Shown here: positions 3,751 to 60,781 of the stretch, one piece after another
Layout: the number at the start of each line of letters is the position of its first letter
Position numbering within the stretch: the stretch's first letter is position 1
DNA from: an uncultured Actinomycetes bacterium
GTDB taxonomy: Bacteria > Actinomycetota > Thermoleophilia > RBG-16-64-13
Assembly (NCBI GenBank): GCA_903873715.1
Contig: CAIQPS010000168.1
Location: 3,939-67,938 of the forward strand
Direction: 5' to 3'
Length of the DNA stretch: 64,000 nucleotides
Notes under the pieces: generated by a model
What the model was told of the DNA's origin: nothing
Database searches by the model: none
Seen by the model: only the letters and a program-made list of their open reading frames with translations
Program-made: the position numbers and the translations under genes

Positions 3751-3874
3751 CCGGCGCGGCCGGAGTCGGCGCGGCCGTCACGGCCATCCGCTTCCTCAGA
3801 GGCGGGGTTGAAGGTACTATCGAGTCTCCGCAGACTCATCCCGTTAACGGGTCTGCCAAGGATTGGAGACTTTC

Positions 3875-4270: not shown

Positions 4271-4279
4271 GGCGGAGAC

Positions 4280-12284: not shown

Positions 12285-15200
12285 TCAGGCCAGAGCCATC
12301 ACCGTCTTGTCTTCGGGCGCGCTCTGTCGCGCGGTCACACGGGCTGAGCGCAGCACTTCGGGGCGGACTTTCTCCACCTGGATAAGGCAGGAGTTGGCCG
12401 CCGTCGCGTGCGACTTCTCGATCTGCATGCGGCTGGGCGTGAGGATGTTCACGCAACCGCCCCGGTCGTCGGAGTGCCCCGGGACGCCCACCGGGTCGTA
12501 CACCGCCGACGACTCGTATGAGTGGATCAGGCCCGGGCGCACCCGCTCGGTGATGACCGCGGCGCAGAAGACGCCACCGCGGTCGTTGTAGAGGCGGATT
12601 ACGTCGTGCTGCTTGATGCCCCGCTCGGCGGCGTCGGCCGGGTTGATGCGGGCGATCCAGTAGTGGTAGCCGTCGATCTCGATGCGGTGGTCGGTCACGT
12701 CGTTGAGCGCGGCGCCTTTGCCGTCGTGGTGCGTGTGGAACGAGAAGCGCGGGTGCGGCGTGATGAGCTGCAGCGGGTACTTCTCGAACAACTCCGTAGC
12801 GTGCGGGCCCTCCCACGATTCGCGCCAGGTCATGATCGGCGGGCGCTCGGGATCGTCCGGGTCGAAGCGCTTGAGGCTGCTCGACTCGAACTCCAGGCGG
12901 CCGGTCTGGGTCTGCAAGCCGCGCTTCCACTCCTCTTTGTAGTCGCCAGGCAGAGGGCTGAGTTCCGGGACGTCCTTGAGCCGGTCCTCGGCGAACCAGT
13001 TGTACGAGACGGGGTCGCGGTTCTCCTCGGGCAGTGGCGGCACCACGTAGTAGCCCTTCCGGATGAACTCCTTCCAGGAGATCACGCGCGGCAGGTCGGT
13101 GGCTTCGAAGAGGCGGCGGCACCATTCGATCTCGGTGCTGCCCTCGGAGAAGGCGTTCCCGAGGCCGAGGCGCTCCGCCAACTGCAGGAAGATCTGGAAG
13201 TCCGGCTTGGATTCCCCGAGCGGCTCGATGCACTTGTGCTGCATCACGGCCACGCGGTGGTTGCTCTGCGTGAACGCGTGCTCCGCGTACCCGCCCGGGT
13301 TGGCGAACTCACCGATGTCGAAGCGCTCGAAGTTGGTGCAGGCCGGCAGGATGACGTCTGCGAACTTGGCCTCCCCTTCGAACCAGATGGACTGGTTCAC
13401 GACGAACTCCAGGTTCTCCGAGGAGTACATGCGGGCGTAGCGGTTGGTATCCACCATCGTCCCGATGTGGGATCCGCCGAACTTGTAGTACATCTTCACC
13501 TGGGAGTGGCCCGGCGCGGGATAGCTGAATTTCCCGAACTGCGCCTCGATGGTCTTGCCGTCGTTCATGTACGCCTCGGCCTTACCCTCGAGTATAGCTT
13601 CAGGGATACGCAGCCGCGGGATGGCCTGCTTCACGGGGTTCATGCTCACGAGCTGCGGCATCCGCTGATACATGTGCAGCGAGAGGCCGGTGGCATCGAG
13701 GTCGCCGGACATGCCGCCCTCGGCGTAGCCCGGGAAGTAGAAGCGGGTGTCGAGCGGGGCGCCCTGCTGCAGGCAGCCCATGTTGATGCCCGGCTTCCCG
13801 AGGCCCTGCATGGCCATGAGATACACCATCCCCCGGGCCCAGTCGGTCCCGGTAGCGGTGCGGCAGGCGCCGCCGAAGCCGACGTAGCCGCCCGGAGCCA
13901 GGTAGGTCTTCTTGCGGCCCCACTCGCGGGCCAGCGCGCGCACGTCCTTGGCGGGCACGCCGGTCTCGGCTTCCTGCCACTCGGGCGTCTTGGCGATGCC
14001 GTCGTCCTCGCCCAGCACGTACGCCTTCCAGGCGTCGAACCCGGAGGTGCGCTCGAACACGTACTTCTTGTCGTACAGGTTCTCGGTGATCCACACGTAG
14101 GCGATGGCCAGGATCATGGCGCTGTCGGTGCCCGGTTTGGGCGCCAGCCACTTCCCGCCCAGCCAGCCGGCGGTGTGGTTGAAGTACGGGTCGATGTGGA
14201 CCATCGGGATGCCCAACTCCTTGAGCCAGCGCCGGCGGACGGTCCCTTCCTGGGCGCCATACACGCCGCTCGTGGACTCCGGGTCGCTCGACCAGAACAC
14301 CACCATCTCGGCGTTCTTGAGCAGGTCCTCGACGGTGCTGAAGGTCTCGCCGCCGCCCAGGCGGGTGCTCTGGCCCCAGTGGTGCACGGCGCCCCAATAC
14401 CACCCCTCCCAGCTGTCCGGGTTGTGGGCGATGGGCGTCCAGCCGATGGAGTTGAAGAACCGGATGCGGGCCGACAGCCAATAGCCGATGGCGCCCCAGT
14501 TCTGATGGGAACCGGAGCCGTTCATGATGGCGCCGGGGCCGTGGTCGCGCTTCACGCGCTTGATCTCAGCAGCGACGATGTCGAGGGCCTCGTCCCAGCT
14601 GATGCGCTCGTAGCCGGAGATGCCGCGGTTCTGCGGGTTGCGCTCGCCGTTGGGGTCGAAGTCCACGCGTTTCATCGGATAGAGCAGCCGGTCCGGCGAG
14701 TAGATGAGCGACTTCCAGCTGAGGGTGTGCGGGCTCACCGTCGTCTTGCTGGGCGGGGTGAACTCCTTGCCCCGGGCCTTGATGGTCCACGGCTTGGCGT
14801 CTTGCTCGTCGAACTCGATGGGGGTCACGCGTACGATCTTGCCGTCCTTCACGTAGACGAACACCGGGCCGCCGTTGGAGTTGTTGGTGTAGCGGACGGT
14901 GCCGTCCTTCATCTTGATGCCGTACTCGTTGCCGGCGGACAGCATCAGGGTCATGGTGGTGGTGAACCAGGTGACGAGATGGTCGGTGCCGGCCACCTCG
15001 AGCTGGAACGTCTTGGCGGCGGAGAGGAACTCGAGCTGGTCGCGCTTGGGCCGCAGCACGCGCGCGGCCACCGAGGCGTCCTGGAACGTCATGACCACGT
15101 CGGCGTTCGGATGGATGCCGCGCCTGGACGTGACCTTGCCGTCCTGGAAGATGTAGTAGCGGGCCTGCGAGTTGTCGCGGATCCGGACCTGGGCCACCAG

Positions 15201-15320
15201 GTTCTCCTTGGCCAGCCAATCACGCACCTGCGGGAAGCGCCGCGACTGCACGCGCAGCGCCTGAGCGAGGCCCCAGGTGGTGACCGCGAACTGGACCTTG
15301 TGGATGAGATTCGCCGCCAT
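12285..15320 (-). CDS. molybdopterin (bis-MGD) enzyme large subunit, pyrogallol transhydroxylase / resorcinol hydroxylase family, with extra ~140-aa N-terminal SCP2-like domain
   Basis: From residue ~140 on there is block-by-block similarity to what I recall of Pelobacter acidigallici AthL: GGPVFVYVKDGKIVR, FTPP, YPMKRVDFDPNGERNPQNRG, YERISWDEA, NPDSWEGW, VFWSSDPE, ILPACTNFER, HPRFSFH, YNDRG, HSYES..YDP..DRGGC. There is no N-terminal Cys cluster and no Tat signal. The ATG overlaps the stop of the small subunit (ATGA at 15320-15322). Confidence 0.85.
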   Translation of the reverse strand: MAANLIHKVQFAVTTWGLAQALRVQSRRFPQVRDWLAKENLVAQVRIRDNSQARYYIFQDGKVTSRRGIHPNADVVMTFQDASVAARVLRPKRDQLEFLSAAKTFQLEVAGTDHLVTWFTTTMTLMLSAGNEYGIKMKDGTVRYTNNSNGGPVFVYVKDGKIVRVTPIEFDEQDAKPWTIKARGKEFTPPSKTTVSPHTLSWKSLIYSPDRLLYPMKRVDFDPNGERNPQNRGISGYERISWDEALDIVAAEIKRVKRDHGPGAIMNGSGSHQNWGAIGYWLSARIRFFNSIGWTPIAHNPDSWEGWYWGAVHHWGQSTRLGGGETFSTVEDLLKNAEMVVFWSSDPESTSGVYGAQEGTVRRRWLKELGIPMVHIDPYFNHTAGWLGGKWLAPKPGTDSAMILAIAYVWITENLYDKKYVFERTSGFDAWKAYVLGEDDGIAKTPEWQEAETGVPAKDVRALAREWGRKKTYLAPGGYVGFGGACRTATGTDWARGMVYLMAMQGLGKPGINMGCLQQGAPLDTRFYFPGYAEGGMSGDLDATGLSLHMYQRMPQLVSMNPVKQAIPRLRIPEAILEGKAEAYMNDGKTIEAQFGKFSYPAPGHSQVKMYYKFGGSHIGTMVDTNRYARMYSSENLEFVVNQSIWFEGEAKFADVILPACTNFERFDIGEFANPGGYAEHAFTQSNHRVAVMQHKCIEPLGESKPDFQIFLQLAERLGLGNAFSEGSTEIEWCRRLFEATDLPRVISWKEFIRKGYYVVPPLPEENRDPVSYNWFAEDRLKDVPELSPLPGDYKEEWKRGLQTQTGRLEFESSSLKRFDPDDPERPPIMTWRESWEGPHATELFEKYPLQLITPHPRFSFHTHHDGKGAALNDVTDHRIEIDGYHYWIARINPADAAERGIKQHDVIRLYNDRGGVFCAAVITERVRPGLIHSYESSAVYDPVGVPGHSDDRGGCVNILTPSRMQIEKSHATAANSCLIQVEKVRPEVLRSARVTARQSAPEDKTVMALA

Positions 15321-36426: not shown

Positions 36427-37617
36427 TTACTCGCGTACCTGCACCATTAGTTTGAACGCCCCGCCCAGGTCGCGTTCGTCGAGGAGGTTGCGCAGCACGG
36501 TCGCCTGCCGGTCGGCCTCGATGTCGTCGAGTCCCATGTCTCCAGCCGCGAGAGCCTCCAGCACATCCTCGGCGCCTCCGGCCCGCAGAAGTGCCGACAT
36601 GGTCCCGAACAGCACCGTCTCGAAGCCGTGGCGCCGGCTGTGCAGGTCGAGCGCGGCGAAATCGACGTCCGCAGTGAGGTCCTGCCGGCCCGGCCTGGCC
36701 AGGACGTCGGTGACCAGGCGCTGTTTGAAGTAGCCGCGCACGGTCTGACGGCGCAACCTTCGCCCCTCGAGCCCCCAACTCTCTCCCTCGTAGGGGACGC
36801 CGGGGAACCACTCGCCGTAGTCGATGTTGACGAAGCTTCCCGACGGCATGACCGCGGCCACCCCGGCCAGCAAGCGGTCCATCCCGGGGAAGACCTCGAT
36901 GACGCCGTCCTCGGTGAACGCTGCCAACCGCGCGGGGTCGACGGTACCGAAGAGTGTCTCCAGCTCGGCGACCGCCTCGGCGGTCACCGGCCCCCAGAAC
37001 TGCTCCAACCCGGACGCCCCCGCCCGCACGTACGACTCGCCGAGCCCCGCGGCATCGACCCGCACCAGATGCACCGGCAGGGTGTCGACGAACTCGTTGC
37101 CCACTATCACTGCCGGCCTCGTGCCGGCGCACGCCTCCGCGAGCGATGGTCCCCAGGCCACATCCCAGCCGGACACCGTGAAGGCCGTCAGCGCAGCGGC
37201 CTGCGTGCATTGCAGCCCCCCGCTCACCTCCACCGCCCGGTACGCGACCAAGTCCTTCAGTCCGGGCCTGGCCTCCTGCCAAAGACTGAGGAGTTCGCCG
37301 GCCAGGTGTCCCTCACCCCCGCCCAGCTCGACGACGCTCAACCGGCCTGTCCGGCCGGCCTCGCCGTCTCCGGACGGCGCACCGTCCGCGCCGAGCGCCG
37401 CGTCCAGCAGGTCGGTGACCAGCCGGGCGACGGTGCGGTTGAAGAAGGGCGACAGCCCCGGCGCGGTGTTGAAGTCTCCGCCGTGGCCGAGGATGCGGTC
37501 GGTGCGGCAGTAGTAGCCGAGCGATGGATGGGTCAGCGCCAGCTCCATGAAGCGGGCGAAGGTCACCCGGCCTCCCTCGGCGGCGATCGCCTCGGGGATG
37601 GAGGCGGGCTCGCTCAC
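36427..37617 (-). CDS. SAM-dependent methyltransferase, DUF185 / MidA (NDUFAF7-like) family
   Basis: GDFNTAPGLSPFF, VELGGGEG and VGNEFVDTLPVH blocks. The GTG start overlaps the upstream stop (GTGA). Confidence 0.75.
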   Translation of the reverse strand: MSEPASIPEAIAAEGGRVTFARFMELALTHPSLGYYCRTDRILGHGGDFNTAPGLSPFFNRTVARLVTDLLDAALGADGAPSGDGEAGRTGRLSVVELGGGEGHLAGELLSLWQEARPGLKDLVAYRAVEVSGGLQCTQAAALTAFTVSGWDVAWGPSLAEACAGTRPAVIVGNEFVDTLPVHLVRVDAAGLGESYVRAGASGLEQFWGPVTAEAVAELETLFGTVDPARLAAFTEDGVIEVFPGMDRLLAGVAAVMPSGSFVNIDYGEWFPGVPYEGESWGLEGRRLRRQTVRGYFKQRLVTDVLARPGRQDLTADVDFAALDLHSRRHGFETVLFGTMSALLRAGGAEDVLEALAAGDMGLDDIEADRQATVLRNLLDERDLGGAFKLMVQVRE

Positions 37618-38225
37618 CTGCCGCCGGCAGCCAGGGCCGCGACCACCTGCCTGAAATATTCGAGCGGCTGCGCCCCTACCACCTTCGGCCCATCGGCGAA
37701 GAAATAGGTGGGCACGCCGGTGACGCCCAGCCGGCGGGCTTCCTCCTCGGCGGCCCGGCGGCGGTCCGCATAAGTGCCGTTCGCGAGCGCCCCGCTGAGG
37801 GCGGCGCCGTCGAGCCCCACTCCCTCGGCGATGCGCATCAGCACCTCGATATCGCCGATATCCTCACCTTCCGCGAAGTACGCGGCCAGAGTGCGGCGGT
37901 GGAAGTCGTGGAACTTTCCGGCATCCCGGGCGAACTCGGCGGCCTCGCAGGCCAGCCGGGTGTTGGACAGCCGCCCCTGGGGTTCGAACGGCAACCCCAG
38001 TTCCTCGGCGCGCCGGCGAAGTGGGTCGAGATGCCGCGCGGCCCCGGGGCCGAACAACTTCTCCAGCGACATGCCTTCGGGCGGCGTCTCGGGATGGATC
38101 TCGTAGCTCAGCCACTCGTCTTCGAGTGGGAACTCCTCTTTCAGCTTATCGACAATACCCGTGCCGATATAGCAGAACGGTCATATGTAGTCGGAGAAGG
38201 CCCTGACGTGGATCGGTACGCTCAT
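37614..38225 (-). CDS. DsbA/FrnE-family thiol-disulfide oxidoreductase with in-frame TGA at the first CxxC cysteine (candidate selenoprotein, or pseudogene)
   Basis: The track splits it into 38181-38585 (...MSVPIHVRAFSDYI*) and 37614-38072. My in-frame read across the gap is MSVPIHVRAFSDYI-TGA-PFCYIGTGIVDKLKEEFPLEDEWLSYEIHPETPPEGMSLEKLF..., the canonical sDY.CPFCYiG N-terminus of FrnE-like DsbA proteins. The total is 203 codons. ATG 38225 overlaps the upstream stop (ATGA). Confidence 0.55.
38147..38169 (-). promoter_or_regulatory. candidate bacterial SECIS-like stem-loop
   Basis: The mRNA UAUCGGCA-CGGGUAU-UGUCGAUA lies 12-34 nt after the UGA. It has an 8-bp stem with one G-U pair and a 7-nt loop with G at its second position. 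Confidence 0.3.
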
Positions 38226-38545
38226 TTGAACTGCCCCCATTCGGGATCCGCGGCGCCGGCGCGGCCGTGGATCATATTGCCTCGCGCATCGCGGCCGAGC
38301 TCCGGAGGGGTCTCGTAGAGCTCGTCGAGCGCCTCCGCGGCCGCTTCGAGACTCAGAGAATACGGGTAGGGATAGTTGCCCGCCACCGGCCGTCCCGCCT
38401 TGCTCTCGATGCGGAAACAGCCGTAGTCCATGCGGCTCTCGTCGCGGGCCCGGGACTTGCGGAGCACCAGCCCCATCGAGGCAGCCATGCGGCGCACGCG
38501 GGCTTCGTTGCGCTTCTGTTCGGCGGCTGTGAGGTCGTCGGCCAT
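38222..38545 (-). CDS. small hypothetical protein
   Basis: ATG 38545 follows GAGGAGGA. The sequence is MADDLTAAEQKRNEARVRRMAASMGLVLRKSRARDESRMDYGCFRI... Only the C-terminal 107 codons of the 221-aa track ORF look coding. Confidence 0.5.
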   Translation of the reverse strand: MADDLTAAEQKRNEARVRRMAASMGLVLRKSRARDESRMDYGCFRIESKAGRPVAGNYPYPYSLSLEAAAEALDELYETPPELGRDARGNMIHGRAGAADPEWGQFK

Positions 38546-38653
38546 CGTGCGATCCTCCTCGGGAGAATGCGATGCAACTCGGCATACGATACCAGCCCTG
38601 AGACGGCTACAATCGTATCGGAACAGACCACCGACCAGAGAGGAGCCCCCCGG

Positions 38654-38944
38654 ATGCCCGTCAACCTCTCTATCAAGAACGTCCCCGACGACGTGGCCCG
38701 AGGCCTCCACAACCGCGCGGCCCGTAACAACCGGACGATCCAGCAAGAACTTCTCGCCATCCTCAAGGATGCGGCGAAGGATCAGGAAGACGTCAGCCTG
38801 GACGTCCTTTTGGCCAACGCTCAGAAGAAGAAGCCCACGCTCGACGAGCGGACCTCCCGGGTGCTCGCCGATGAGGACGCAAAGCACGAGCAGACGGCCA
38901 AGAGGTTCGCCGACCTGCTCGGGTCGCCGGACGACGAGGACTGA
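38654..38944 (+). CDS. ribbon-helix-helix (Arc/FitA-like) DNA-binding protein, antitoxin-like
   Basis: MPVNLSIKNVPDDVARGLHNRAARNNRTIQQELLAIL is a typical FitA/Arc RHH N-terminus, followed by an acidic tail. ATG 38654 lies behind GAGAGGAG. Confidence 0.65.
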   Translation: MPVNLSIKNVPDDVARGLHNRAARNNRTIQQELLAILKDAAKDQEDVSLDVLLANAQKKKPTLDERTSRVLADEDAKHEQTAKRFADLLGSPDDED

Positions 38945-39024
38945 CCGGCCGCGCGGCGGCTAGGCGCGCCGCGCCAGGGACCGCTCAGCGCGCCGTCGTC
39001 CGGGCCGGCGCCGAAAGGAAGCCG

Positions 39025-40635: not shown

Positions 40636-41469
40636 TCAGGCCACCTTGCCTTCCATCTCCTTGTACAACTGCGGCAGGATGCGGCCCAGGTTGGCGAACT
40701 CCTGGACGTCGTGCAGGAACAGGCCCTGGACGGCCTCCTCGGGGATGCGCATGCCCGGGGGCAGCATCAGCACGGGCTTCTTGTCGACGATCTGGTAACC
40801 CACCCAGAAGCGGTTACGCACCTCGATGCCCTCGTCGGTCTTGCGGACCAGGTGGACGAACGCCACCGGCAGGCCGGGGCCGTCCTTGGGATCGTCCACG
40901 CCGCGGGCCATCACGTTGGCCGCAGCCAGCGCCTCGGCGTACGGCGGCCGGTAGGCGTCCATGTCGAAGCCGAACTCTTCGGGCGTCAGGAAGGTGATGT
41001 CCACGGCGTTGAAGATGCCCCCGCCGATGTCCTCCACCACGTGATGGGTGAGGCCCTGGAACTTCTGAGTGAGCGGCGTGGCGGGGTCGAGCACCTTCGC
41101 GCGGGCGTCGGGGTCGAGCCGGGCCGACACGTGCATCTCCGGATACCAGAGCTTGTAGCGGAGGTCCTCCAGACCGTGCCAGGCGAACCACCAGTCGATC
41201 ATCTCGGGGGTGGCGCCTTTCATGGGATGGCGGAGGGCCACGCAGCCGCTGCCGTCCGGCATGACGCAGTAGCCGTTCTCGCCGGTGGTGTAGCCGGGTC
41301 TGAGCAGGTCGTTCGCGTCGTGGATGTCGTCGGCCTTGGCCGGGTCGAGCGGCTTGAGGTCCTTGAGCATCTCGGCGTGATGCGGCGCCGGCGGGGCCGA
41401 CGGCAGGTAGTAGTACTTGGCGTACGGCTGGGCCTTCTCGGCCTCGGTGAGCTCTATGCGTTCGGCCAT
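40636..41469 (-). CDS. DAPG hydrolase / phloretin hydrolase family protein (C-C hydrolase of acylphloroglucinols)
   Basis: 277 aa. It carries MIDWWFAWH, VHLVRKTDEGIEVRNRFWVG and C-terminal LHDVQEFANLGRILPQLY (H and E four residues apart). From recall these match PhlG/Phy family blocks and zinc ligands. Confidence 0.65.
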   Translation of the reverse strand: MAERIELTEAEKAQPYAKYYYLPSAPPAPHHAEMLKDLKPLDPAKADDIHDANDLLRPGYTTGENGYCVMPDGSGCVALRHPMKGATPEMIDWWFAWHGLEDLRYKLWYPEMHVSARLDPDARAKVLDPATPLTQKFQGLTHHVVEDIGGGIFNAVDITFLTPEEFGFDMDAYRPPYAEALAAANVMARGVDDPKDGPGLPVAFVHLVRKTDEGIEVRNRFWVGYQIVDKKPVLMLPPGMRIPEEAVQGLFLHDVQEFANLGRILPQLYKEMEGKVA

Positions 41470-41482
41470 CTCGGTCCCTCCG

Positions 41483-42154
41483 CTAGACGATGTAGTCGGT
41501 GGACGGGTCGTACGTGTCGTGCGGCGCGGGCGGCACCGGCACCAGTTCCATCACCGCGTTCGGCGAGTACATCCACACGTAGGAGGACTTCCGGTTCGGC
41601 TTCCACTCGTCCGGCAGACCGGGCGGGAAGATGTCGCCGATGTCCCCGGGATCGCCGGCCGGCGGCGCCGTCCACGGCACCTCGAACGGCGTGATGATGT
41701 TCAGGTAGACGTGCAGGTTGCGGATCTTCCAGCCGTCGGCCTCTTTGATGAAGTCGCAGCCGTAGGTGCCCCACACCCACATGGCGGTGAGCTTGCCGCC
41801 GAGCACCCGGGCCTCGTGGCCGGGCGACATCCACACACCCTTGGCGGTCTTGCCGTCCTTGGCCACCTCGATCACCGGGGTGGCGAGCATGTGCTGCATC
41901 ATCTGCCCTTCGATGGGCACGCCTATCTTGGACGTCCAGTTGTGGAAGCCGTGGAAGCAGCGGTACCCCGCATCCATGCCGTCCCACACGCCCAGCGGGC
42001 CGATCTCCACCTTCTGCGGCACCGTCTTGGCGAACAACTCCACCGTCTCGGTGAACATGTTGGCCGTGGTCAGGTACTCGTACATGCCCATGAGGTTGGT
42101 GATCTCATGGACGTCGTTGAGCTTACGGACCAACGCGCCCAGATCTTCAGACAT
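41483..42154 (-). CDS. NTF2-like (SnoaL_4-type) protein with C-terminal extension
   Basis: Paralogue of 22831-23532 (ATPVIEVAKDGKTAKGVWMSPG, MWVWGTYGCDFIKEADGWK). Confidence 0.6.
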   Translation of the reverse strand: MSEDLGALVRKLNDVHEITNLMGMYEYLTTANMFTETVELFAKTVPQKVEIGPLGVWDGMDAGYRCFHGFHNWTSKIGVPIEGQMMQHMLATPVIEVAKDGKTAKGVWMSPGHEARVLGGKLTAMWVWGTYGCDFIKEADGWKIRNLHVYLNIITPFEVPWTAPPAGDPGDIGDIFPPGLPDEWKPNRKSSYVWMYSPNAVMELVPVPPAPHDTYDPSTDYIV

Positions 42155-42187: not shown

Positions 42188-43033
42188 TCAGGCCTTCTCG
42201 AGGGCGACCGCCGGCAGCGTCAGGCTGGCGGCCGTCGGCGCGGCTTTGCGCTCCACCGGCTTGTAGCCGGCGGCTTGGATGGCCACGGTGTACTCGGCGC
42301 CCGGCTCCAGCTTGTCCACGAGGAAGTCGCCGTAGTTGTTGGTCACGGCCGTCGCGACCGCGGCGCCGTCCTTGGAGATGGTCACTTCGCAACCCTCGGC
42401 GCAGTCGCCGTTGTCGGCGAAGTAGGCGCTGCCGGCCACGAAGACCTTGGTCCAGCGGTACATGTTCTTGTAGTAGACCCGGGGCGTGGTGCCCAGTTCC
42501 GGCTTGCTGACCTCGAGACCGTCGGCGGCCACGCGGGCGGCCATCTCGGCGTCTTCGGCCATGACGAACTGCATGGCTCCGGTCGGGCACGCCTGGGAGC
42601 AGCGGGGCTGGGTCCATCCCTGGTCCACCAGGTGCGCGCAACCGGTGCACTTCTGGGCCACGCCGGCGTCGGCGTTCCAGGAGATGGCGCCGTAGGGGCA
42701 GGAATCCACGAGAGCCTCGTTCCCCTTGGCCTTCACCGGGTCGATGATGACGATCCCGTCCTCACGCTTGTAGATGGCGCCGGCGCTCGCATCCACACAG
42801 GGAGCGGCGTCGCAGTGCATGCATATGCCGGGCTTGTGGACCACCTGGATCTGCGGGAACTGGCCGCGCTCCTTGCGCTCGATCTCGAGCCAGCGGGCGC
42901 CTTCCCACGGCTGGGCCACGGAGAACGGCGCCCAGTCGTTGCCGGTGAACTCGTCCTTGTCGGCCATGAAGCAGCAGTTGCAGTCGTTGCAGAGGGCCAG
43001 GTCGATGACCATGTTCCATTTCTTGGCCATCAC
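42188..43033 (-). CDS. Fe-S small subunit of transhydroxylase-type molybdoenzyme
   Basis: CNDCNCCFMA, CMHCDAAPC, CPYG, CTGCAH...RCSQAC. KPELGTTPRVYYKNMYRW closely matches the block I recall from the P. acidigallici beta subunit. C-terminal beta-sandwich (NNYGDFLVDKLEPGAEYTV). The start overlaps the large-subunit stop (ATGA). Confidence 0.85.
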   Translation of the reverse strand: MMAKKWNMVIDLALCNDCNCCFMADKDEFTGNDWAPFSVAQPWEGARWLEIERKERGQFPQIQVVHKPGICMHCDAAPCVDASAGAIYKREDGIVIIDPVKAKGNEALVDSCPYGAISWNADAGVAQKCTGCAHLVDQGWTQPRCSQACPTGAMQFVMAEDAEMAARVAADGLEVSKPELGTTPRVYYKNMYRWTKVFVAGSAYFADNGDCAEGCEVTISKDGAAVATAVTNNYGDFLVDKLEPGAEYTVAIQAAGYKPVERKAAPTAASLTLPAVALEKA

Positions 43034-45639
43034 GCCACCCCCTTGTCCAGAGACGCGTCGTACTTCTCGATCTGGATGAGACAGGAGTTGTTCGCCATCC
43101 CCGAGGACATCGGAGTGATGAACCGCGAGGACGAGAGGACGTTCACGCAGCCACCGCGGTCGGACGACTCGCCCGGCGTCCCGATGGGGTCGTACTCGGC
43201 GCAGGACTCGTAGGAGTGAGCCACGCCCGGCGCCATCCGCTCGGTCACCTGCACGGAGAGGATCACGGACCCGCGGTCGTTGAACGCCCGGATGAGGTCG
43301 CCGTCGGCGATGCCGCGGGCGGCGGCGTCGGTGCTGCTGACCCGCATGATCCAGTAGTAACGGCCGTCGCTGTGCAGGACGCGGTGGTCCTTGATCTCGT
43401 TGGTCCAGCTGTCCTTGGCGTCGTTGTGGGTGTGGAAGGTGAAGCGCGGGTGCGGCATGATCAGCTGCAGCGGGTACTTGGCCTTCAGGTCGGTGGTGCG
43501 GTGGCCCTCCCAGCTCGGGATGTACTGCGGCCCCATCACCGGGCGCTCGGGGTCGACCAGGCCGGTGGCCTCAGCGCGCTTGAGGCTGTTGCTGACGAAC
43601 TCGATCTTGCCGGACTGCGTCTGCAGGCCCTTGTTCTGGACGACCTCCCAGGGAGCCGGGCCCCAGTCGGGGGTGTCGCGCTCCCGGTCTTCGGCGAACC
43701 AGCGCATGCCCGGAGTGGACTTACGGTCGGCCGGGCGGGGCGGCACCACGTAGTAGCCCTTCTTGACGAAGTCGTCCCAGGTGGTGACGGTCGGCAGGTC
43801 GGTGGCGTCGAAGGTGGCCTTGACCCAGCCGAGCTCGTCGCGGCCCATGGTGTACATGCCCTCGAGGCCCAGCCGGGCGGCGATGCCGCGGAAGATCTCG
43901 TAGTCGGATTTCGACTGGCCCAGCGGCTCGATGGCCTTGTGCTGCAGCACGATGATGCGGTGGTTGCACATCTGGGAGCTCTGGGTCACATAGCCGTTGG
44001 CCAGCGCCCACTCACCGATGTCCCAGCGCTCGAAGTTGGTGCAGGCCGGGAGGATGACGTCGGCGAACTTGGCCTCGCCCTCCATCCAGATGGCCTGGGA
44101 CACCACGAACGGCACTTTACCCTCGCGGTAGGCCTTCACGTGCTTGTTGGTCTCGGTCATGGTGCCGAAGAACGAGCCGCCGAAGCGATAGTACATCTGG
44201 GCCATGGAGTAGCCGGGCGCCGGATACTGGAACTTGTGGAACTGCGCCTCGATGTGCGACCCGGTGAAGCCCTTGCCGTACCACTCGTTCGGCTGGTGCA
44301 TCATGATCTCGGGGGTGCGCAGACGGTAGCCGATCGACCCTTCGGCCGAGCGGTGCGGCAGCGAGAAGGCCCCGCCCCGCGGGAACATCCGGTAGGCGAA
44401 GTCCTTGCCGGCGGCGCTGTTGCCCAGGTCGCCGGAGATGCCGCCCTCGGTGTAGCCGGGGAAGAAGAAGGTGTCGTCCTGGGGCGGGCCGTAGCTGGTG
44501 CTCCACAGGTTGCTGCCCGGCGTGCCCAGGGCCTGCATGGTGGCGAGCGCGATCATCGCCCGCGGCCACTCGGCTCCGGTCGCCTGCCGGGCGGCGCCGC
44601 CCAGGCCGGCGAGGCCGCCCGCGGCCAGCATGGTCTTTTTGGAGGCCCACTCCCGGGCCAGCGCCCGGATGTCGCGGGCCAGCACGCCCGATTCAACCTC
44701 GGCCCATTCCGGGGTCTTCGGCTGGCCGTCGCTCTTGCCCAGCACGTAGTCCGTCCACTCCTCGAAGCCGACGGTCTTAGTGGCCACGTATTCCTTGTCG
44801 TACGTGCCTTCGGTGAGCCAGGTGTGAGCGATGGCCAGGGCCAGCGGCACGTCGGTGCCCGGCCGCGGGGCCAGCCACTTGTCCCCGATCTGGCCGGCGG
44901 TGTGGTTGAAGTACGGGTCGATGAAGATCATCTTCACGCCCAGGCCCTTGAGCCACCGCCGCCACGGCAGCGACTCGTAGCCCGCGTACACCCCGCCCTG
45001 CGTGGTGTCCGGGTCCGACGACCAGAAGACGATCATGTCCGTGTTCTTGAGCGAGTCCTCGAGCAGGTCGTAGCCCTCGAGGTTGCCGAGACGATGGGTG
45101 TTGCCCCACATGTGGGCGCCACCCCACAGCCACCCCTCCCAGCTGTCCGGGTTGGCCTCGATGTAGCTCATGCCCACCGCGTTGAGGAAGCGCTGGTAGC
45201 AGCTGAAGCGGTAGCCGACGTTGCCCCACATCTGATGGGAGCTGGGCTGGGTGAAGATGGCGCAGGGGCCGAACTCGCGCTTGACCCGGATGATCTCCTC
45301 GGCCACCATGTCCCAGGCTTCTTCCCAACTGATGGGCTCGTACCCGGACGTCCCGCGGTTGCCGATGTTACGGGCGCCCTTCGGGTCGAAGTCGACGCGC
45401 TTGAGCGGCGTGAGGATGCGCTTGGGCGAGTACACGATCGACCGGTGTCCGACGGTCCAGGGGCTCACGAGCGCCTTGCGCGGCGGCGTGAACTTCTTGC
45501 CCCGGGCATCGATCACCCACGAGGGCGAGTCGGTGTTGTCGAACTCCAAGGGGACCAGGCGGACGATCTTGCCGTCCTCCACGTCCACGAAGACCGGACC
45601 CCCGGTGGTGCAGTTGGTGAAGCGTTGCACCTCTCCCAT
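43030..45639 (-). CDS. molybdopterin (bis-MGD) enzyme large subunit, pyrogallol transhydroxylase / resorcinol hydroxylase family
   Basis: 869 aa (P. acidigallici AthL is about 875). It starts MGEVQRFTNCTTGGPVFVDVEDGKIVR. Blocks SSHQMWGNVGYR, NPDSWEGWLWGG, VFWSSDPD, ILPACTNFERWDI, MPHPRFTFH, YWIMRV..DA.ARGI..GDLIRAFNDRGSV, HSYESCAEYDP..DRGGCVN. No Fe-S Cys cluster and no Tat signal. Confidence 0.9.
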   Translation of the reverse strand: MGEVQRFTNCTTGGPVFVDVEDGKIVRLVPLEFDNTDSPSWVIDARGKKFTPPRKALVSPWTVGHRSIVYSPKRILTPLKRVDFDPKGARNIGNRGTSGYEPISWEEAWDMVAEEIIRVKREFGPCAIFTQPSSHQMWGNVGYRFSCYQRFLNAVGMSYIEANPDSWEGWLWGGAHMWGNTHRLGNLEGYDLLEDSLKNTDMIVFWSSDPDTTQGGVYAGYESLPWRRWLKGLGVKMIFIDPYFNHTAGQIGDKWLAPRPGTDVPLALAIAHTWLTEGTYDKEYVATKTVGFEEWTDYVLGKSDGQPKTPEWAEVESGVLARDIRALAREWASKKTMLAAGGLAGLGGAARQATGAEWPRAMIALATMQALGTPGSNLWSTSYGPPQDDTFFFPGYTEGGISGDLGNSAAGKDFAYRMFPRGGAFSLPHRSAEGSIGYRLRTPEIMMHQPNEWYGKGFTGSHIEAQFHKFQYPAPGYSMAQMYYRFGGSFFGTMTETNKHVKAYREGKVPFVVSQAIWMEGEAKFADVILPACTNFERWDIGEWALANGYVTQSSQMCNHRIIVLQHKAIEPLGQSKSDYEIFRGIAARLGLEGMYTMGRDELGWVKATFDATDLPTVTTWDDFVKKGYYVVPPRPADRKSTPGMRWFAEDRERDTPDWGPAPWEVVQNKGLQTQSGKIEFVSNSLKRAEATGLVDPERPVMGPQYIPSWEGHRTTDLKAKYPLQLIMPHPRFTFHTHNDAKDSWTNEIKDHRVLHSDGRYYWIMRVSSTDAAARGIADGDLIRAFNDRGSVILSVQVTERMAPGVAHSYESCAEYDPIGTPGESSDRGGCVNVLSSSRFITPMSSGMANNSCLIQIEKYDASLDKGVA

Positions 45640-51831: not shown

Positions 51832-52248
51832 TCAGGCGGTCGGCTGGATGACCTCGACGAGCGCCCCGTCGGGCCCCAGGAGGAAGGCCGCCCGCGAACC
51901 GGGTGCGTCGAACGGGCCCATCGCGATGGTGCCGCCGTGCTCCTCGAGTCGCGCCAATACCGCGTCCAGGTCCCGGGTCTGGAAGCACATGTGCTTGTTA
52001 CCCGTGGTCCGGATATCCTCGTTCGGGACGCTCCGTTCGGACGACGCCGCCTTGCCCTCGTCGTGCTGGAACAGCTCGATGGAGAAGTCGCCGCTCTTGA
52101 TGAACGCGATGTGCACGCCGAACTTCGCCAGGAAGTCCTCTTTGCGATCGAGTTCGAACCCCAGCACCTTGTCGAACCACTCGATGGCGGCGTCGAGATC
52201 GCTGACGCTCATCCCGAAATGGTGCGGGAGCACGATGACGTCCTTCAA
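51832..52248 (-). CDS. VOC (glyoxalase/bleomycin-resistance/dioxygenase) family protein
   Basis: 138 aa; HHFGMSVSDLDAAIEWF...GF...IELF...HMCF pattern of paired beta-alpha-beta-beta-beta modules. Confidence 0.7.
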   Translation of the reverse strand: MKDVIVLPHHFGMSVSDLDAAIEWFDKVLGFELDRKEDFLAKFGVHIAFIKSGDFSIELFQHDEGKAASSERSVPNEDIRTTGNKHMCFQTRDLDAVLARLEEHGGTIAMGPFDAPGSRAAFLLGPDGALVEVIQPTA

Positions 52249-52272
52249 AGGATCCTCCTCGGTGTGGCCGGC

Positions 52273-53175
52273 TCAGGAGCGGCCGTCGGACATGGTCTGT
52301 TTCGGCACGTGCGTGCGCACGTAGGCTATGAGGGCGCGGGCCGCCGCCGACAGCGGGCGGTCCTGAGGATAGATGAGGTGCAGGTCGCGGGTCAGCGGGT
52401 CCTCGAAGGGGATGGCCGCCAAGCCGTCCAGCGAAGCCGGGCTGCACAGCGTGATCGGCATAGGCGCGATCCCCAGCCCCTTGCGCACCAGCTCCTTGTT
52501 CAGTTCAGGATAGTTGCAGCGCGACGAGACCTTGGGGGTCAGGCCGCGCTTGCGGAACGCCTCCACGATGAGGTTGCTCACGTGCAGTGTGGCCCGGGGC
52601 AGCAGGATGGTCTCGTTCGCAGCCTCCTTGAAGCTCACGACCGGCTTGCCCGCCAGCGGATGATCCTTGGGCACCACCAGCACCATCTCCTCGGTGAGCA
52701 GGTGGTACGCCGACACCCGGCTGGACCCCCACGGCGTCATGACCCCGCAGTCGAGCTCGCCGCTTATGACAGCCTCCTCGAGCTGAGCGTCGTCCCGTTC
52801 CATGAGGTCGATGCTCATCCCAGGGTAGGCGGCTATGAACGGCGCCAGCAGAGGGATGAGGATGTGGGCCATGACCATCGGCACGGCTCCGAAATGCACG
52901 GTGCTCGGGCCTCCCCCGGCCTGTTCCCGGATGATCCCGATGGCATCCTCGGTGCGGGTGACGATGGCATTGGCGAGCGGCAGGAGCAGTTCCCCGGCGG
53001 TGGTGAGTTCGACGTGCCGGCCGTAGCGGACGAAGAGCCGCGCGTCGAGCATCTCCTCCAGACGGGCGATCTGCCGGCTCACGGTCGATTGGGTCGAGTA
53101 GAGCTGCTCCGCGGCTTTGCTGAAGCTGCGGGCATCGGCGACGGTCGAGAACGTCTTGAGGAGATCCGTTTCCAT
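52273..53175 (-). CDS. LysR-family transcriptional regulator
   Basis: LKTFSTVADARSFSKAAEQLYSTQSTVSRQIARLE wHTH plus a ~200-aa substrate-binding domain. Confidence 0.85.
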   Translation of the reverse strand: METDLLKTFSTVADARSFSKAAEQLYSTQSTVSRQIARLEEMLDARLFVRYGRHVELTTAGELLLPLANAIVTRTEDAIGIIREQAGGGPSTVHFGAVPMVMAHILIPLLAPFIAAYPGMSIDLMERDDAQLEEAVISGELDCGVMTPWGSSRVSAYHLLTEEMVLVVPKDHPLAGKPVVSFKEAANETILLPRATLHVSNLIVEAFRKRGLTPKVSSRCNYPELNKELVRKGLGIAPMPITLCSPASLDGLAAIPFEDPLTRDLHLIYPQDRPLSAAARALIAYVRTHVPKQTMSDGRS

Positions 53176-53245
53176 CGAATGGATATGTTATCGCGTCTCC
53201 GGGCGATAGAATCATCCCGGTGCTCCACTCACCACGACTCCGGGG

Positions 53246-56853: not shown

Positions 56854-57228
56854 TCAGGCGTTCTCGGCCATCTTCCTCCGTTGCACCCGGCGGGTGCCGA
56901 TGCACAGGCCACAGCCCTTGCACTGCCCGCCGTTCTCGCCGCCGATGCCGTAGTGGAGCCGCAGGCGCCTCTCTCCGTCCCGGTCGAGAGGCGCGTCGCC
57001 CTCCAGGGCGGGCCCGGTCTCCACGTAGCCGCGCGGATAGGGGAAGACGAGGCGGTCGCCGGACTCGCGGATGTCGTCGCCGGGCAGCAGCATCCTGCGG
57101 GGGCCCTCCATCTCCACGACGATCCAGGACGTGCCGAACTTGCGCCGCTCGTAGCCGGCACCGGCTATCACCCCGATAGAGGCGCCGTTGACGTCGAAGA
57201 GCTGCCGGCCGGTCCAGTCCATGGGCAC
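56854..57228 (-). CDS. PRC-barrel-like small protein with C-terminal CxxCxxC
   Basis: GRQLFDVNGASIGVIAG...SWIVVEM...RMLLPGDDI...DRLVFPY fits the PRC-barrel pattern, with a CKGCGLC tail. Confidence 0.45.
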   Translation of the reverse strand: MPMDWTGRQLFDVNGASIGVIAGAGYERRKFGTSWIVVEMEGPRRMLLPGDDIRESGDRLVFPYPRGYVETGPALEGDAPLDRDGERRLRLHYGIGGENGGQCKGCGLCIGTRRVQRRKMAENA

Positions 57229-57333
57229 TATGCTAGCAGGCGCCGGCGAAGGGCTGCTGCGCGGCGCGTCGGACCCGGCCGCTCGCGATCCCGCGGCACG
57301 GGCGCCGCGGACGGCCGTCGGCCGCTCGCGGGG

Positions 57334-58689
57334 TCAGCCGCGCCAGTCCCGCCCGGTGTCGATCATCGCCTTGAGGTTGGCCGCTTTCGCATCGTCCAGC
57401 GACGCGCCGTTGCGCAGGAAGAACCCTCCGTCACGGGCGCAGGTATCCAACAGCCGGGTCACGTACTCTTCCACCTCGCCCGGCGTGGCCAGCGCCAACA
57501 GCGCCGACGGCACGTTCCCCGCGATGCATCCCTGTCCGGCAAGCGCCTGCTTGGCCAGAGCCATGTCGGTCTGGTCGAACCACCACAGGACCGTCCCCGC
57601 CGGGATGTCACGGTCCGCGATGACCTCGAGGCGCTTGTTGTAGCTGCCCTGCACGAACATCACCGGGACGATGCCCTGCTCCACCAGGCCGAGGATCACG
57701 GCCTTGAGGGTCGGCCAGTAGAATTCCTGGAAATCGGGCACGGACATGAAGCTGTCCGCCCCCTTGTGCAGCCAGAAGAAGATCAACGGGGCCTGCGCGT
57801 GAGCGGTCTGGCGCACGCACGAGTCGATCATCAGGGGGACGAACCGTTCGACAGCGGCCAGTATCTTCTCCGGCTGCCGGAAGCGGTCGATCATGACGCC
57901 TTTGGTCCCACGCAGAGTGTCGGCCAGGATGTCGTAAGGGGCTTTGCCGGAGCCGCCGAGTTCCGGCGGGATGCCCAGCCTGCCTGCGGCGTCGGCATCG
58001 GCGGCCTTGGTGGCGCCGAGCCAGGCAAGCGAGTCTTTGGCCGCGTCGGCCAACCGCTGCACGGATTCGGCCACCGCCGGGTTGGCGAACGGCAGGATGT
58101 TGAAGGGCATGCCCCCGGCTTCCATGAGATCGGAGAACGGCCCGAGCGTGCCCAGCGGCGCGAACGCCGAGCCGAAGCGGGGCAGAAGCACCCGGCGGAA
58201 GTAGTTCTCGGGATCCGCTATGAGGGCGTCGTACTCCTCCGCCTTCATATACTCGCCCTCGAGGTACTGCCAGGGCGTCTCGTCGGGCAGGCCGTTGCCG
58301 GGCCAATCCACGAACTGCAGCCCGAGTCTCTCGAACACGCCTCCCGGAGCTACCGGCCGGGCCTGGAAATCGGGCAGGAAGTCCTCGTGATACCTGCGCA
58401 GGGCCGCGGCGCACTTGCCGTAGTCGTGCATGGACTCCTTCTTGGTGAGCCCACTGTGCTTGCCCACGTAGAAACCGACCGCCGCGCCCACCGGCACGCG
58501 GGCCGGCTTCTTGAGCGTGATGGCGTCGATGAGCAGCTGCACCCGGTCCTGATAGGCCTGCCGCGCCTCGTCGCTCGCGAACTCGACGTCGTGTCCCGCT
58601 TTCCAGCGTGCGAAGCGGCGCTCCCGGCGCTCCTGCCAGCTCAGCGCATGCCAGCCGTCGAACATGGGATCGGGCGCGCCCCAGGCCAT
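57334..58689 (-). CDS. uroporphyrinogen decarboxylase (URO-D) family protein, MtaA/CmuA-like methyltransferase candidate
   Basis: 451 aa. The general URO-D-fold layout (N-terminal ...ERRERRFARWKAG...RVPV..., C-terminal ...GFFLRNGASL...) is recognised by pattern only. It directly abuts the upstream gene. Confidence 0.55.
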   Translation of the reverse strand: MAWGAPDPMFDGWHALSWQERRERRFARWKAGHDVEFASDEARQAYQDRVQLLIDAITLKKPARVPVGAAVGFYVGKHSGLTKKESMHDYGKCAAALRRYHEDFLPDFQARPVAPGGVFERLGLQFVDWPGNGLPDETPWQYLEGEYMKAEEYDALIADPENYFRRVLLPRFGSAFAPLGTLGPFSDLMEAGGMPFNILPFANPAVAESVQRLADAAKDSLAWLGATKAADADAAGRLGIPPELGGSGKAPYDILADTLRGTKGVMIDRFRQPEKILAAVERFVPLMIDSCVRQTAHAQAPLIFFWLHKGADSFMSVPDFQEFYWPTLKAVILGLVEQGIVPVMFVQGSYNKRLEVIADRDIPAGTVLWWFDQTDMALAKQALAGQGCIAGNVPSALLALATPGEVEEYVTRLLDTCARDGGFFLRNGASLDDAKAANLKAMIDTGRDWRG

Positions 58690-60078
58690 TCAGACTCCTT
58701 CTGGATCGATCGTGCAGGGGATGGTGGTGACGTCGACTCGTTCGTTGCGATCGCGATCGACGTATGGGAAGCGGGAGACGGTCGCTCGGATCTCCCTTTG
58801 CCGCATGCCGGGATCGCCCCACACGACCGAGACCTCCGTCCCGGGCCGGGCGGACTCGGTGTCCAGCGAGCAGAGTGAGAGCATCTCCCGGAAATGGTGG
58901 CTGTAGGTGCGGCCCGAGCTGACGCCCACCAGCGCCCCGTCCCTCACCACCCGGTCGGCGTAGAGCACCGGGACGCCACCCTCCTGGGCCTCGTGGATGG
59001 GCTCCATCGGCATGAACGGCTCTCCCGGCCGGAACTGCGACGCGTGGACATCCAGGATGTCCTCGGCGTCCCACACCAGCGTGACCATGGTCCGGCGCTG
59101 CTCTGCCGCGCGCTGCTCGAGCGCGGCGCGGCCGGTGAAGTCGTGGTCGAACTTGACCGCCTTGCCCCATCCGAGCTCGAGGGGATCGCGGTAGCGCGGC
59201 TCCATGTCCGCCCCCATGCTCCCCCGCAGGCGCATCCCCGGGCGGTCGCCGCGGCTGTTGGCCCGCGTCCACGCCGTGAACCCCTGGTCATCCCCCCAGG
59301 CCACGGGGAAATGGACGAACGCCTGCGGGAAGCCGCCCGGCGTGTGGTTCATGCGGTAGGCCGTCAGGCCCAGCTTCTCGAGCCCGAAGGCCGCTCCGGC
59401 GTCCACCAGCGCCTGGTAGACCCGCGCCGCGTCGCCCATGACGCCGTTGACCTCGTACGCGAGAGTGCCGGCCATCCCCAGGCGGATCACCCGCACCGTC
59501 GCCCCGGCCACGGCGCTCATCCGGTGGCGTCCGAAGGCCACATCGTGCAGACACTCGCGCGCCGCGGTCTCGAGCACCTCGAGCGACCGCGGGCCGGCGA
59601 GCTGGAAGGTGAACCGGCCGTCGACGGACTCGCCACGAGCGTCGTAGTCACCGGTCTGCAGCCGGTAGACGGCGTAGGGAGCGAGGTAGGTGGTGATGAA
59701 CTCGTCCTCCGCCACGCGCAGCAGCACGCCGTGGGCCATGACGCGACCCCGCTCGCTGCACATGATGGCGTGCTTCATCGCCCCGACAGGGAAGTTCGAG
59801 AAACCGTTGACGCAGGTCTCCGAGAAGAAGCGAAGCGCATCGGGCCCGGCGACCCGGTAGCAGGGCTGCGGGTTCAGCCCGGCGTGCAGGTAGCAGCTCT
59901 CCATCGCGGCCACCTGCTCCTGGCGCCAGCCGCCGTACTCCAACGGCACCGCCGTACCGTAGCCCAGGTTGGTGCGGCTGAAGCAGTAGGAATCTACGGC
60001 AGGGTCGTAGGGCGCGTAGGGGAAAAGGGGCAGTTCCTGCATCGCACGACCCTCCGCACGGCCCTCCACCTGCGTCAT
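58690..60078 (-). CDS. GcvT-fold tetrahydrofolate-dependent O-demethylase, LigM-like
   Basis: VKFDHDFTGRAALE, MVTLVWDAEDILDVHASQF and RLGMAGTLAYEV blocks parallel the Sphingobium LigM sequence as I recall it (FVKFDHDFIGRDALE, KVTLAWNGDDM..IYASLF). The alternative start ATG 60042 has a better SD. Confidence 0.7.
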   Translation of the reverse strand: MTQVEGRAEGRAMQELPLFPYAPYDPAVDSYCFSRTNLGYGTAVPLEYGGWRQEQVAAMESCYLHAGLNPQPCYRVAGPDALRFFSETCVNGFSNFPVGAMKHAIMCSERGRVMAHGVLLRVAEDEFITTYLAPYAVYRLQTGDYDARGESVDGRFTFQLAGPRSLEVLETAARECLHDVAFGRHRMSAVAGATVRVIRLGMAGTLAYEVNGVMGDAARVYQALVDAGAAFGLEKLGLTAYRMNHTPGGFPQAFVHFPVAWGDDQGFTAWTRANSRGDRPGMRLRGSMGADMEPRYRDPLELGWGKAVKFDHDFTGRAALEQRAAEQRRTMVTLVWDAEDILDVHASQFRPGEPFMPMEPIHEAQEGGVPVLYADRVVRDGALVGVSSGRTYSHHFREMLSLCSLDTESARPGTEVSVVWGDPGMRQREIRATVSRFPYVDRDRNERVDVTTIPCTIDPEGV

Positions 60079-60085
60079 CCCGGCG

Positions 60086-60781
60086 TCAGACCCCGAGCCA
60101 CTTCTGCTTGACTTCCTCGTTGTTTCGCAAGTCCTCGGGCAGGCCGTCCCACACCACCGAGCCTTTGCTGATCACGTAGACGTAGTCCGCGGCGTTCAGG
60201 GCCATGTTGAAGTTCTGCTCGGCGAGGAACACCGTGAGCTTGCCCTTGAGCTCGCAGATGATCTGGCCGATCTGCTTGACCACGAGCGGCGCCAATCCTT
60301 CGGACGGCTCGTCCATGATGAGCAGCTCCGGGTTGGCCATGAGCGCCCGGGCGATCGCCAGCATCTGCTGCTCACCGCCGCTCAACAGGTTGCCGGGGAA
60401 GTTGGAACGCTCCCGCAGGATGGGGAACTGCTCGTACACCCGCTCGAGGTTCCAGGCGCCTTCGCGCCGGTTGTCCCGCGCGGCTATCTCCAAGTTCTCC
60501 TTGACGCTCAGCGACGGGAAGATGCCCCGGCCCTGCGGCACGATGCCGATGCCCTTCTTGGCGATGCGGTGCGGCTCCAGGCCGTTGATGGGCTCGCCGT
60601 TGAAGCGGATGGTGCCGTCGATCGGCGGGGCCAGCCCCATGATGGAGCGGATGATGGTGGTCTTGCCCATGCCGTTGCGACCCAGCATGGCCACGGAACT
60701 CCCCTGCGGCACCTTGAGAGAGAGGTCCCAGAGGACGTGCCGTTCCCAGTAAAACGTGTTGATGTTCTCGAGCTCTAGCAA
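60086..60781 (-). CDS. ABC transporter ATP-binding protein, LivF-like
   Basis: GRNGMGKTT, LSGGEQQMLAIA, LLIMDEPSEG. The TTG 60781 start lies behind AGGAAG and overlaps the LivG-like stop. Confidence 0.9.
   Translation of the reverse strand: MLELENINTFYWERHVLWDLSLKVPQGSSVAMLGRNGMGKTTIIRSIMGLAPPIDGTIRFNGEPINGLEPHRIAKKGIGIVPQGRGIFPSLSVKENLEIAARDNRREGAWNLERVYEQFPILRERSNFPGNLLSGGEQQMLAIARALMANPELLIMDEPSEGLAPLVVKQIGQIICELKGKLTVFLAEQNFNMALNAADYVYVISKGSVVWDGLPEDLRNNEEVKQKWLGV

Follow-up and report, generated by a model that had tools for sequence, protein, structure and literature searches.

DsbA-like proteins of COG2761 with a UxxC redox motif were described in 2005 as a new selenoprotein family from the Sargasso Sea, with nine sequences and a predicted selenocysteine insertion sequence (SECIS) element carrying a G in its apical loop (Zhang, Fomenko & Gladyshev, PMC1088965). 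Members were later reported from Anaeromyxobacter dehalogenans, Desulfovibrio desulfuricans and Desulfotomaculum reducens (Zhang et al. 2006, PMC1794560), and in 2016 a survey covering over 5200 sequenced organisms recorded the family in 41 of them (Peng et al., PMC5029168). A 2026 review lists the 'DsbA-like protein form 1, PF01323, UxxC', treats such families as functionally uncharacterised and states that nearly all selenoprotein families of this type are known from bioinformatics only (PMC13188914). Here we report the analysis of a 64-kb stretch of DNA (hereafter, the window) from contig CAIQPS010000168.1 of an uncultured actinomycete, which contains on its minus strand, at 37614-38225, a gene interrupted by an in-frame TGA. 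In our reading, to which we assign a probability of about 0.9, the gene is an intact member of the known DsbA-like (COG2761/FrnE-type) UxxC selenoprotein family, with selenocysteine (Sec) predicted at the TGA. As a selenoprotein family the group has been known since 2005; what is new is this mis-annotated actinomycete member, and neither a new mechanism nor a new family is involved.

Reading frame and protein family

The minus-strand frame opens with an ATG at 38225, encodes the peptide MSVPIHVRAFSDYI and reaches an in-frame TGA at 38183-38181. After this codon, PFCYIGTGIVDKL (PFCYIGTG...) stays open without a further stop to the TGA at 37616-37614, so that the full frame comprises 203 sense or Sec codons plus the stop, corresponding to a product of about 22 kDa by residue count. 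Of this 203-codon frame, the open reading frame (ORF) finder returned only the 152-residue tail (37614-38072). Both ends of the gene overlap its neighbours: the ATG overlaps the stop of an upstream 107-residue ORF (ATGA, 38222-38225), and the stop shares bases with the GTG from which a downstream Methyltransf_28 gene starts (GTGA, 37614-37617). The original prediction for this stretch had described a 203-codon frame with TGA at the first Cys of CxxC, the operon overlaps and a stem-loop 12-34 nt past the UGA; all of these are present in the sequence, the stem-loop being located at 38169-38147. The features of the locus, with the basis of each assignment in brackets, are the following:

37614-38225, minus strand: full coding sequence of the putative selenoprotein, FrnE/DsbA-like with a thioredoxin fold and active site U15-P-F-C18 (translation, PF01323, FrnE match)
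38181-38183, minus strand: in-frame TGA, predicted Sec codon, residue 15, first position of CxxC (sequence, homologous codons, same-species assemblies L081 and L082)
38172-38174, minus strand: TGC, resolving Cys18 of UxxC (sequence; aligned in every full-length homologue)
38147-38169, minus strand: predicted bacterial SECIS hairpin (folds, pair counts, contrast between Sec and Cys forms)
37614-38072, minus strand: truncated 152-residue ORF (P0001), an artefact of annotation, missing the redox motif as well as strand beta-1 (public gene calls)
38222-38545, minus strand: upstream 107-residue ORF with ATGA overlap (no Pfam or NCBIfam match)
36427-37617, minus strand: downstream PF02636 (Methyltransf_28) S-adenosylmethionine-dependent methyltransferase with GTGA overlap (Pfam match)

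Homology searches were carried out with Cys substituted at the TGA. The Pfam domain PF01323 DSBA matched residues 7-194 of the product (E 4.4e-29, 102 bits versus a cut-off of 25.6), and the closest solved relative was FrnE from Deinococcus radiodurans (PDB 5cnw, 5cp1 and others; E 5e-26, residues 4-189), whose CPWC aligned to the U/C-P-F-C position. As read from the sequence, the redox motif follows immediately on the first beta strand, from residue 15 onwards; this leaves no room for a signal peptide, and for this reason the protein should be cytoplasmic, as is the case for FrnE. Assignment as a periplasmic DsbA, the classical oxidant of exported proteins, was considered and rejected, since the motif lies too near the N-terminus for an export signal. 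Regarding NCBIfam, the only selenoprotein model matched was NF041057 (Rcas_1661 family), with 33.8 bits against a cut-off of 190. Membership in NF041057 was rejected, the score being far below the cut-off and the match limited to model positions 141-246. The NCBIfam scan revealed no model that covers the protein, and the database is without any model able to rescue truncated members of the family.

Members of this family are systematically misannotated in public records. Among the best 66 database homologues, 57 were N-terminally truncated and started past the redox motif, and most other family calls were shortened to about 165 residues. Three other homologues, proteins from the Joint Genome Institute (P0002, P0039 and P0062), carry Trp at the Sec site, and in the case of P0002 (L083:417-1049) the underlying codon in the DNA is TGA. 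A RefSeq 'DsbA family oxidoreductase' from Dehalogenimonas formicexedens (P0067, 184 residues) starts just past the motif. The analysis corrects this annotation: the active site is missing from the public 152-residue call and from most related entries, and some relatives have been deposited with Trp at the Sec position.

Conservation of the TGA codon and of the hairpin

A scan of one genome per species (GTDB) yielded 80 loci encoding relatives, in which the homologous codon was located by a motif pattern with Cys18 as its fixed C. This codon was TGA in 64 of the 80 species-level loci (hereafter, Sec forms) and TGC or TGT in the other 16 (Cys forms), with at least eight phyla represented. The TGA carriers belong to Actinomycetota (Thermoleophilia, Gaiellales), Nitrospirota, Chloroflexota, Dormibacterota, Eisenbacteria, Binatus, Desulfomonilia and other Thermodesulfobacteriota, and to Bacillota (Alicyclobacillus ferrooxydans TC-34, A. 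mengziensis S30H14, Desulfitobacterium sp. Sab5 and one Clostridium). Two more close Cys forms, L087 and L088, were found beyond the 80 loci. Judged from the aligned codons, 64 TGA and 16 Cys codons at one and the same position represent a classic Sec/Cys pair. In the approximately 14 codons from the start to the TGA, the encoded protein was conserved ([IV]R[IV]FSDY[IV]) and third positions varied, indicating that the segment ahead of the TGA has been selected as translated sequence.

The hairpin UAUCGGCA-CGGGUAU-UGUCGAUA is located at +12 to +34 after the UGA and consists of a stem of 8 bp, including one G-U, and a 7-nt loop that starts at +20 and has G as its second base. The energy of this 23-nt hairpin was -7.0 kcal/mol; the core conserved across phyla corresponds to 38149-38167, and in the window a lower stem extends the hairpin to 38140-38177. 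A permissive Rfam scan of positions 37000-39000 retrieved no SECIS family and gave two chance matches only (E 5.6 and 7.6). A local dip in GC content (0.51-0.57 at 38050-38250, versus a window average of 0.67) was observed over the Sec codon and the SECIS, owing to A/T-ending codons frozen in and around the hairpin.

Conservation of this structure was analyzed in an alignment (A2) of the window and 63 TGA loci that spans 60 nt around the codon, is free of indels and includes 62 distinct sequences. The core comprises six pairs (columns 20-25 with 33-38, window 38167-38149), which were formed in 59-62 of the 62 distinct Sec forms, and the loop-closing pair (38162/38154 in the window) was found as A-U (35), C-G (11), U-A (9), G-C (4) and U-G (1). 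None of 500 shuffles reached the observed covariation score or the percentage of paired positions, and the slid-register controls were all lower (26-46% paired vs 84%). In 63 of the 64 Sec forms a G was present within the first two loop bases, and the loop started at +19 to +21 after the UGA. The bacterial SECIS model of Zhang and Gladyshev from 2005 reportedly places the loop 16-37 nt from the UGA, with a G in the first two loop bases; the position of the loop and of its G in the window, together with a hairpin that is conserved and covaries in the Sec forms, are SECIS-like in these respects.

Part of the covariation of the hairpin falls at synonymous sites. The stem codons GGC, ACG, ATT and GTC were each found in 17 of 17 Actinomycetota-like sequences, the Ile codon ATT being maintained although the fraction of third codon positions with G or C is about 0.84 elsewhere in the window's gene, and the Ile codon located 19 positions later was ATC in the same 17 sequences. 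In Nitrospirota this Ile codon of the stem ends in C, its 5' partner there being G. On the other hand, in 13 distant Cys loci two upper stem pairs were broken in 9 and 11 sequences, and the median energy of the core hairpin was -4.9 kcal/mol for Sec forms versus +2.7 kcal/mol for Cys forms (Mann-Whitney p 4e-8). Altogether, the comparative evidence argues that the predicted hairpin is more than a chance structure.

A neighbour-joining tree of 80 family members indicated at least seven switches between Sec and Cys, and placed the window together with L001 (CAVTPV01), from an uncultured Actinomycetota metagenome-assembled genome (MAG), and L002 (CAZWAR01), from a Gaiellales MAG. The window's selenoprotein is 68-71% identical to the copies in these two genomes, both of which keep the TGA and the hairpin, and this retention argues for long-term maintenance. 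The two close Cys forms, L087:1501-2151 (P0003) and L088:252-860 (P0006), are TGC forms nested in an otherwise all-Sec Actinomycetota-like clade, and their hairpins include the ATT codon that defies the codon bias. Both apparently changed from TGA to TGC recently and retain a relic SECIS, in agreement with the published view of a dynamic Sec/Cys exchange (PMC1794560). With covariation at synonymous sites and relic elements in recently converted Cys forms, the family provides a well-controlled example of a bacterial SECIS placed within coding sequence.

Proposed decoding and alternative explanations

In the proposed mechanism, translation would start at ATG 38225, and the SelB-GTP-Sec-tRNA(Sec) complex, held by the hairpin 38169-38147 situated 11 nt downstream, would insert Sec at UGA 38183-38181 instead of allowing termination. 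The product would be a 203-residue cytoplasmic thiol-disulfide oxidoreductase of thioredoxin fold, with a Sec15-Cys18 selenenylsulfide/selenol-thiol couple as redox centre at the position of the FrnE CPWC. In selenoproteins generally, Sec has a lower pKa, is more nucleophilic and resists irreversible over-oxidation. We infer that Sec is actually inserted at this UGA and that the host carries selA, selB, selC and selD, and the analogy with FrnE and the absence of a signal peptide suggest a role as a cytoplasmic disulfide reductase or isomerase.

Several observations weigh against the assignment as a selenoprotein. The stability of the single sequence was no greater than that of controls (71-nt fold vs shuffles, z = -0.56), and the RNAalifold consensus contained just 4 hairpin pairs, with -0.35 kcal/mol; because of this weak consensus, the structural argument was built on pair counts and on the contrast between Sec and Cys forms. 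The two closest Cys forms, L087 and L088, retain the hairpin, so that the hairpin alone is no proof of the Sec state, and some of the stem conservation may reflect protein constraint on the encoded G-x-G-I-V-D. As to the Sec machinery, ARAGORN detected no tRNA-Sec in loci L001-L060, a Pfam scan of 42 window ORFs and three locus ORFs identified no SelA, SelB or SelD domain, and tblastn of the E. coli SelA, SelB and SelD proteins against the window and all loci gave only matches of the SelB GTPase domain to translation-factor-like genes; these searches covered less than 2% of a genome (the window, and flanks of up to 6 kb per side) and are uninformative rather than negative. ARAGORN found no tRNA gene in the 64-kb window, and a literature search for Sec use in Thermoleophilia yielded nothing relevant.

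The original prediction had kept a one-base mutation or a sequencing error as the alternative to Sec. Indeed, the TGA is a single base away from a Cys codon, TGC or TGT, and gene callers stop at it and report the 152-residue ORF only, as would be expected from a nonsense mutation in a pseudogene or from a sequencing or assembly error. The identical 152-residue tail protein is recorded on six contigs, and the DNA was examined for two of them: L081 was 100% identical to the window over 3140 nt, and L082, from a distinct strain, was 99.8% identical, with 4 single-nucleotide polymorphisms (SNPs), of which the only one inside the gene (window 37680) is synonymous. Since both of these independent same-species metagenome assemblies keep the TGA, a sequencing error is excluded. 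In addition, TGA is found in 64 species-level genomes, the start codon and the 14 upstream codons are conserved in frame, and the gene sits between neighbours with ATGA and GTGA overlaps; judged from these comparisons, the TGA can be taken as neither a sequencing error nor a pseudogene, and we give this explanation hardly any weight. Just as little credit is given to the 152-residue ORF as a real, independently translated product from ATG 38072: annotation pipelines call it, but such a product would be devoid of strand beta-1 and the entire redox motif of the DSBA domain, since Pfam matches the long form from residue 7 onwards. Moreover, the internal ATG is not a conserved start, the truncated calls in relatives begin at differing places, and the region from the TGA to this ATG is strongly conserved as protein.

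Decoding of the UGA without Sec, either through a reassigned code (Trp or Gly) or through SECIS-independent near-cognate readthrough inserting Cys or Trp, would be consistent with the Trp deposited at this site in P0002, P0039 and P0062, and with a Sec machinery not seen in the window and the fetched flanks. However, TGA ends 24 of the 44 likely genes of the window, including the selenoprotein gene itself and its upstream neighbour, which indicates that the genetic code is standard and excludes reassignment. Three same-frame TGA junctions elsewhere in the window, considered as further TGA-interrupted candidates (3848-4948, 51832-53187 and 56854-60171), proved to be plain boundaries between ordinary adjacent genes, and a fourth one at 40636 separates two genes; the scan that produced these candidates is blind to cases with a short N-terminal piece. 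Furthermore, a CxxC enzyme would lose its activity if Trp or Gly replaced the nucleophilic Cys, and simple readthrough would leave unexplained a covarying hairpin at a spacing like that of fdhF, so that non-Sec decoding appears very unlikely. Slightly less remote, but still improbable, is that the gene is a decaying relic in a lineage that recently lost Sec decoding, heading for loss or for conversion of the TGA to TGC. The frequent Sec/Cys switches of the family, the conversion of L087 and L088 to TGC with the hairpin still in place and a Sec machinery not found in the DNA searched speak for such a relic; against it, the ORF, start codon, SECIS and operon overlaps are intact, the sole within-species SNP in the gene is synonymous, and L001 and L002 retain TGA and hairpin at the divergence given above. 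Even taken together, the four alternatives are improbable, and the selenoprotein reading put forward by the original prediction is supported by the Sec/Cys pair, the covarying hairpin and the TGA in independent assemblies. That prediction had proposed to look at orthologues for Cys or TGA at this codon, where both are found, and had tied its case to conservation of the hairpin, for which compensatory changes are seen in Sec forms and decay in distant Cys forms; its statement that DsbA-like UxxC selenoproteins had been reported from metagenome surveys was also correct (PMC1088965).

Genomic context and comparison with known systems

The gene order around the selenoprotein gene (DAPG-hydrolase-like, flavin adenine dinucleotide (FAD) oxidoreductase, 107-residue ORF, selenoprotein and methyltransferase) was common to L001 and L002 only, in which the flanking enzymes are 85-92% identical to those of the window. 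Likewise, the 107-residue ORF was found next to the selenoprotein gene only in these two closest MAGs, with 71-74% identity. Comparison of the neighbourhoods of the loci revealed no neighbour common across phyla. As the linkage to the methyltransferase is conserved in L001 and L002 only, this coupling is uninformative on the general function of the protein. In Dormibacterota (L056 and related loci), inspection by eye of 1-3 kb on either side revealed GrpE- and DnaJ-like ORFs on one flank, and a radical-SAM HemN/HemW-like ORF and a translational GTPase on the other. For Dormibacterota alone, this arrangement hints at a possible link of the Sec-containing FrnE to proteostasis.

The finding points to the use of Sec in Gaiellales-like actinomycetes and in other soil phyla. 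A broader and tentative idea, which we hold to be possible but rather doubtful, is that Sec is both the ancestral and the prevailing state of the FrnE clade that includes this gene, which would be widespread among soil phyla and concealed by current annotation. The basis for it is the presence of TGA in 64 of 80 loci, a same SECIS register in at least eight phyla and repeated recent TGA-to-TGC changes with relic SECIS. Under that hypothesis, the clade may be frequent among soil lineages that are seldom regarded as using Sec, such as Thermoleophilia/Gaiellales, Dormibacterota, Chloroflexota and Eisenbacteria; if this were true, Sec use by soil bacteria would be substantially under-counted, and Sec-containing FrnE would be among its most widespread markers.

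Other features were observed in the window. A gene at 38654-38944 on the plus strand encodes a 96-residue FitA-like ribbon-helix-helix protein (antitoxin-type, PF22513), and lies between the FAD oxidoreductase and the selenoprotein operon, on the opposite strand; this assignment is the Pfam annotation precomputed for L081, the contig of identical sequence. Two large molybdopterin oxidoreductases, at 12285-15320 and 43030-45639 (both minus), contain the PF21423 pyrogallol-hydroxytransferase large-subunit-like N-terminal domain, and a DAPG-hydrolase (PhlG-type, PF18089, E 1.5e-70) and a SnoaL-like protein are encoded at 40636-41469 and 41483-42154 (both minus). By its predicted gene content, the combination of molybdopterin oxidoreductases and DAPG-hydrolase looks like a region for degradation of polyphenols of the phloroglucinol/pyrogallol type. 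Finally, the segment 54655-60078 (minus) contains a run of same-frame genes split only by TGA, encoding a GcvT-like aminomethyltransferase, a URO-D-like protein and a small ORF without family match, followed by a fusion of Old-Yellow-Enzyme and pyridine-nucleotide-disulfide oxidoreductase. This run may be a demethylase-type module; Sec at its TGA junctions was rejected, these being ordinary stops.

Regarding known systems, the window protein shares with FrnE of D. radiodurans (5cnw, 5cp1, 5e59) the alignment of the active site and the lack of a signal peptide, and both should be cytoplasmic. FrnE differs in having Cys in place of Sec and in its length of 260 residues, with a C-terminal tail absent from the window protein; the alignment covers residues 4-189 of 203, and the extra length of FrnE is mostly C-terminal. 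The (seleno)lipoprotein Rcas_1661 of NF041057 also has a thioredoxin-like fold with a Sec variant, but it is a lipoprotein, unlike the window protein, and only its C-terminal half matches. In comparison with the SECIS of E. coli fdhF, the hairpin starts 11 nt after the UGA in both cases, the loop starts at +19 in fdhF and at +20 here, and the loops are G-rich: GGUC in fdhF, CGGGUAU in the window and GGUCG in Dormibacterota orthologues. There is no sequence homology between the two elements, and no bulged U is evident in the predicted hairpin of the window.

The closest system is the DsbA-like UxxC family itself, with which the window gene shares the PF01323 domain, Sec as the first residue of CxxC, widespread Cys homologues and a small hairpin directly past the UGA with a G in its apical loop. 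Judged by the published descriptions, the predicted gene has every sequence-level character of the DsbA-like COG2761 UxxC family. The examples named in the papers cited above come from Anaeromyxobacter, Desulfovibrio, Desulfotomaculum, marine metagenomes and Asgard archaea, whereas the copy described here comes from a high-GC Gaiellales-like actinomycete; otherwise, there is no essential difference between them.

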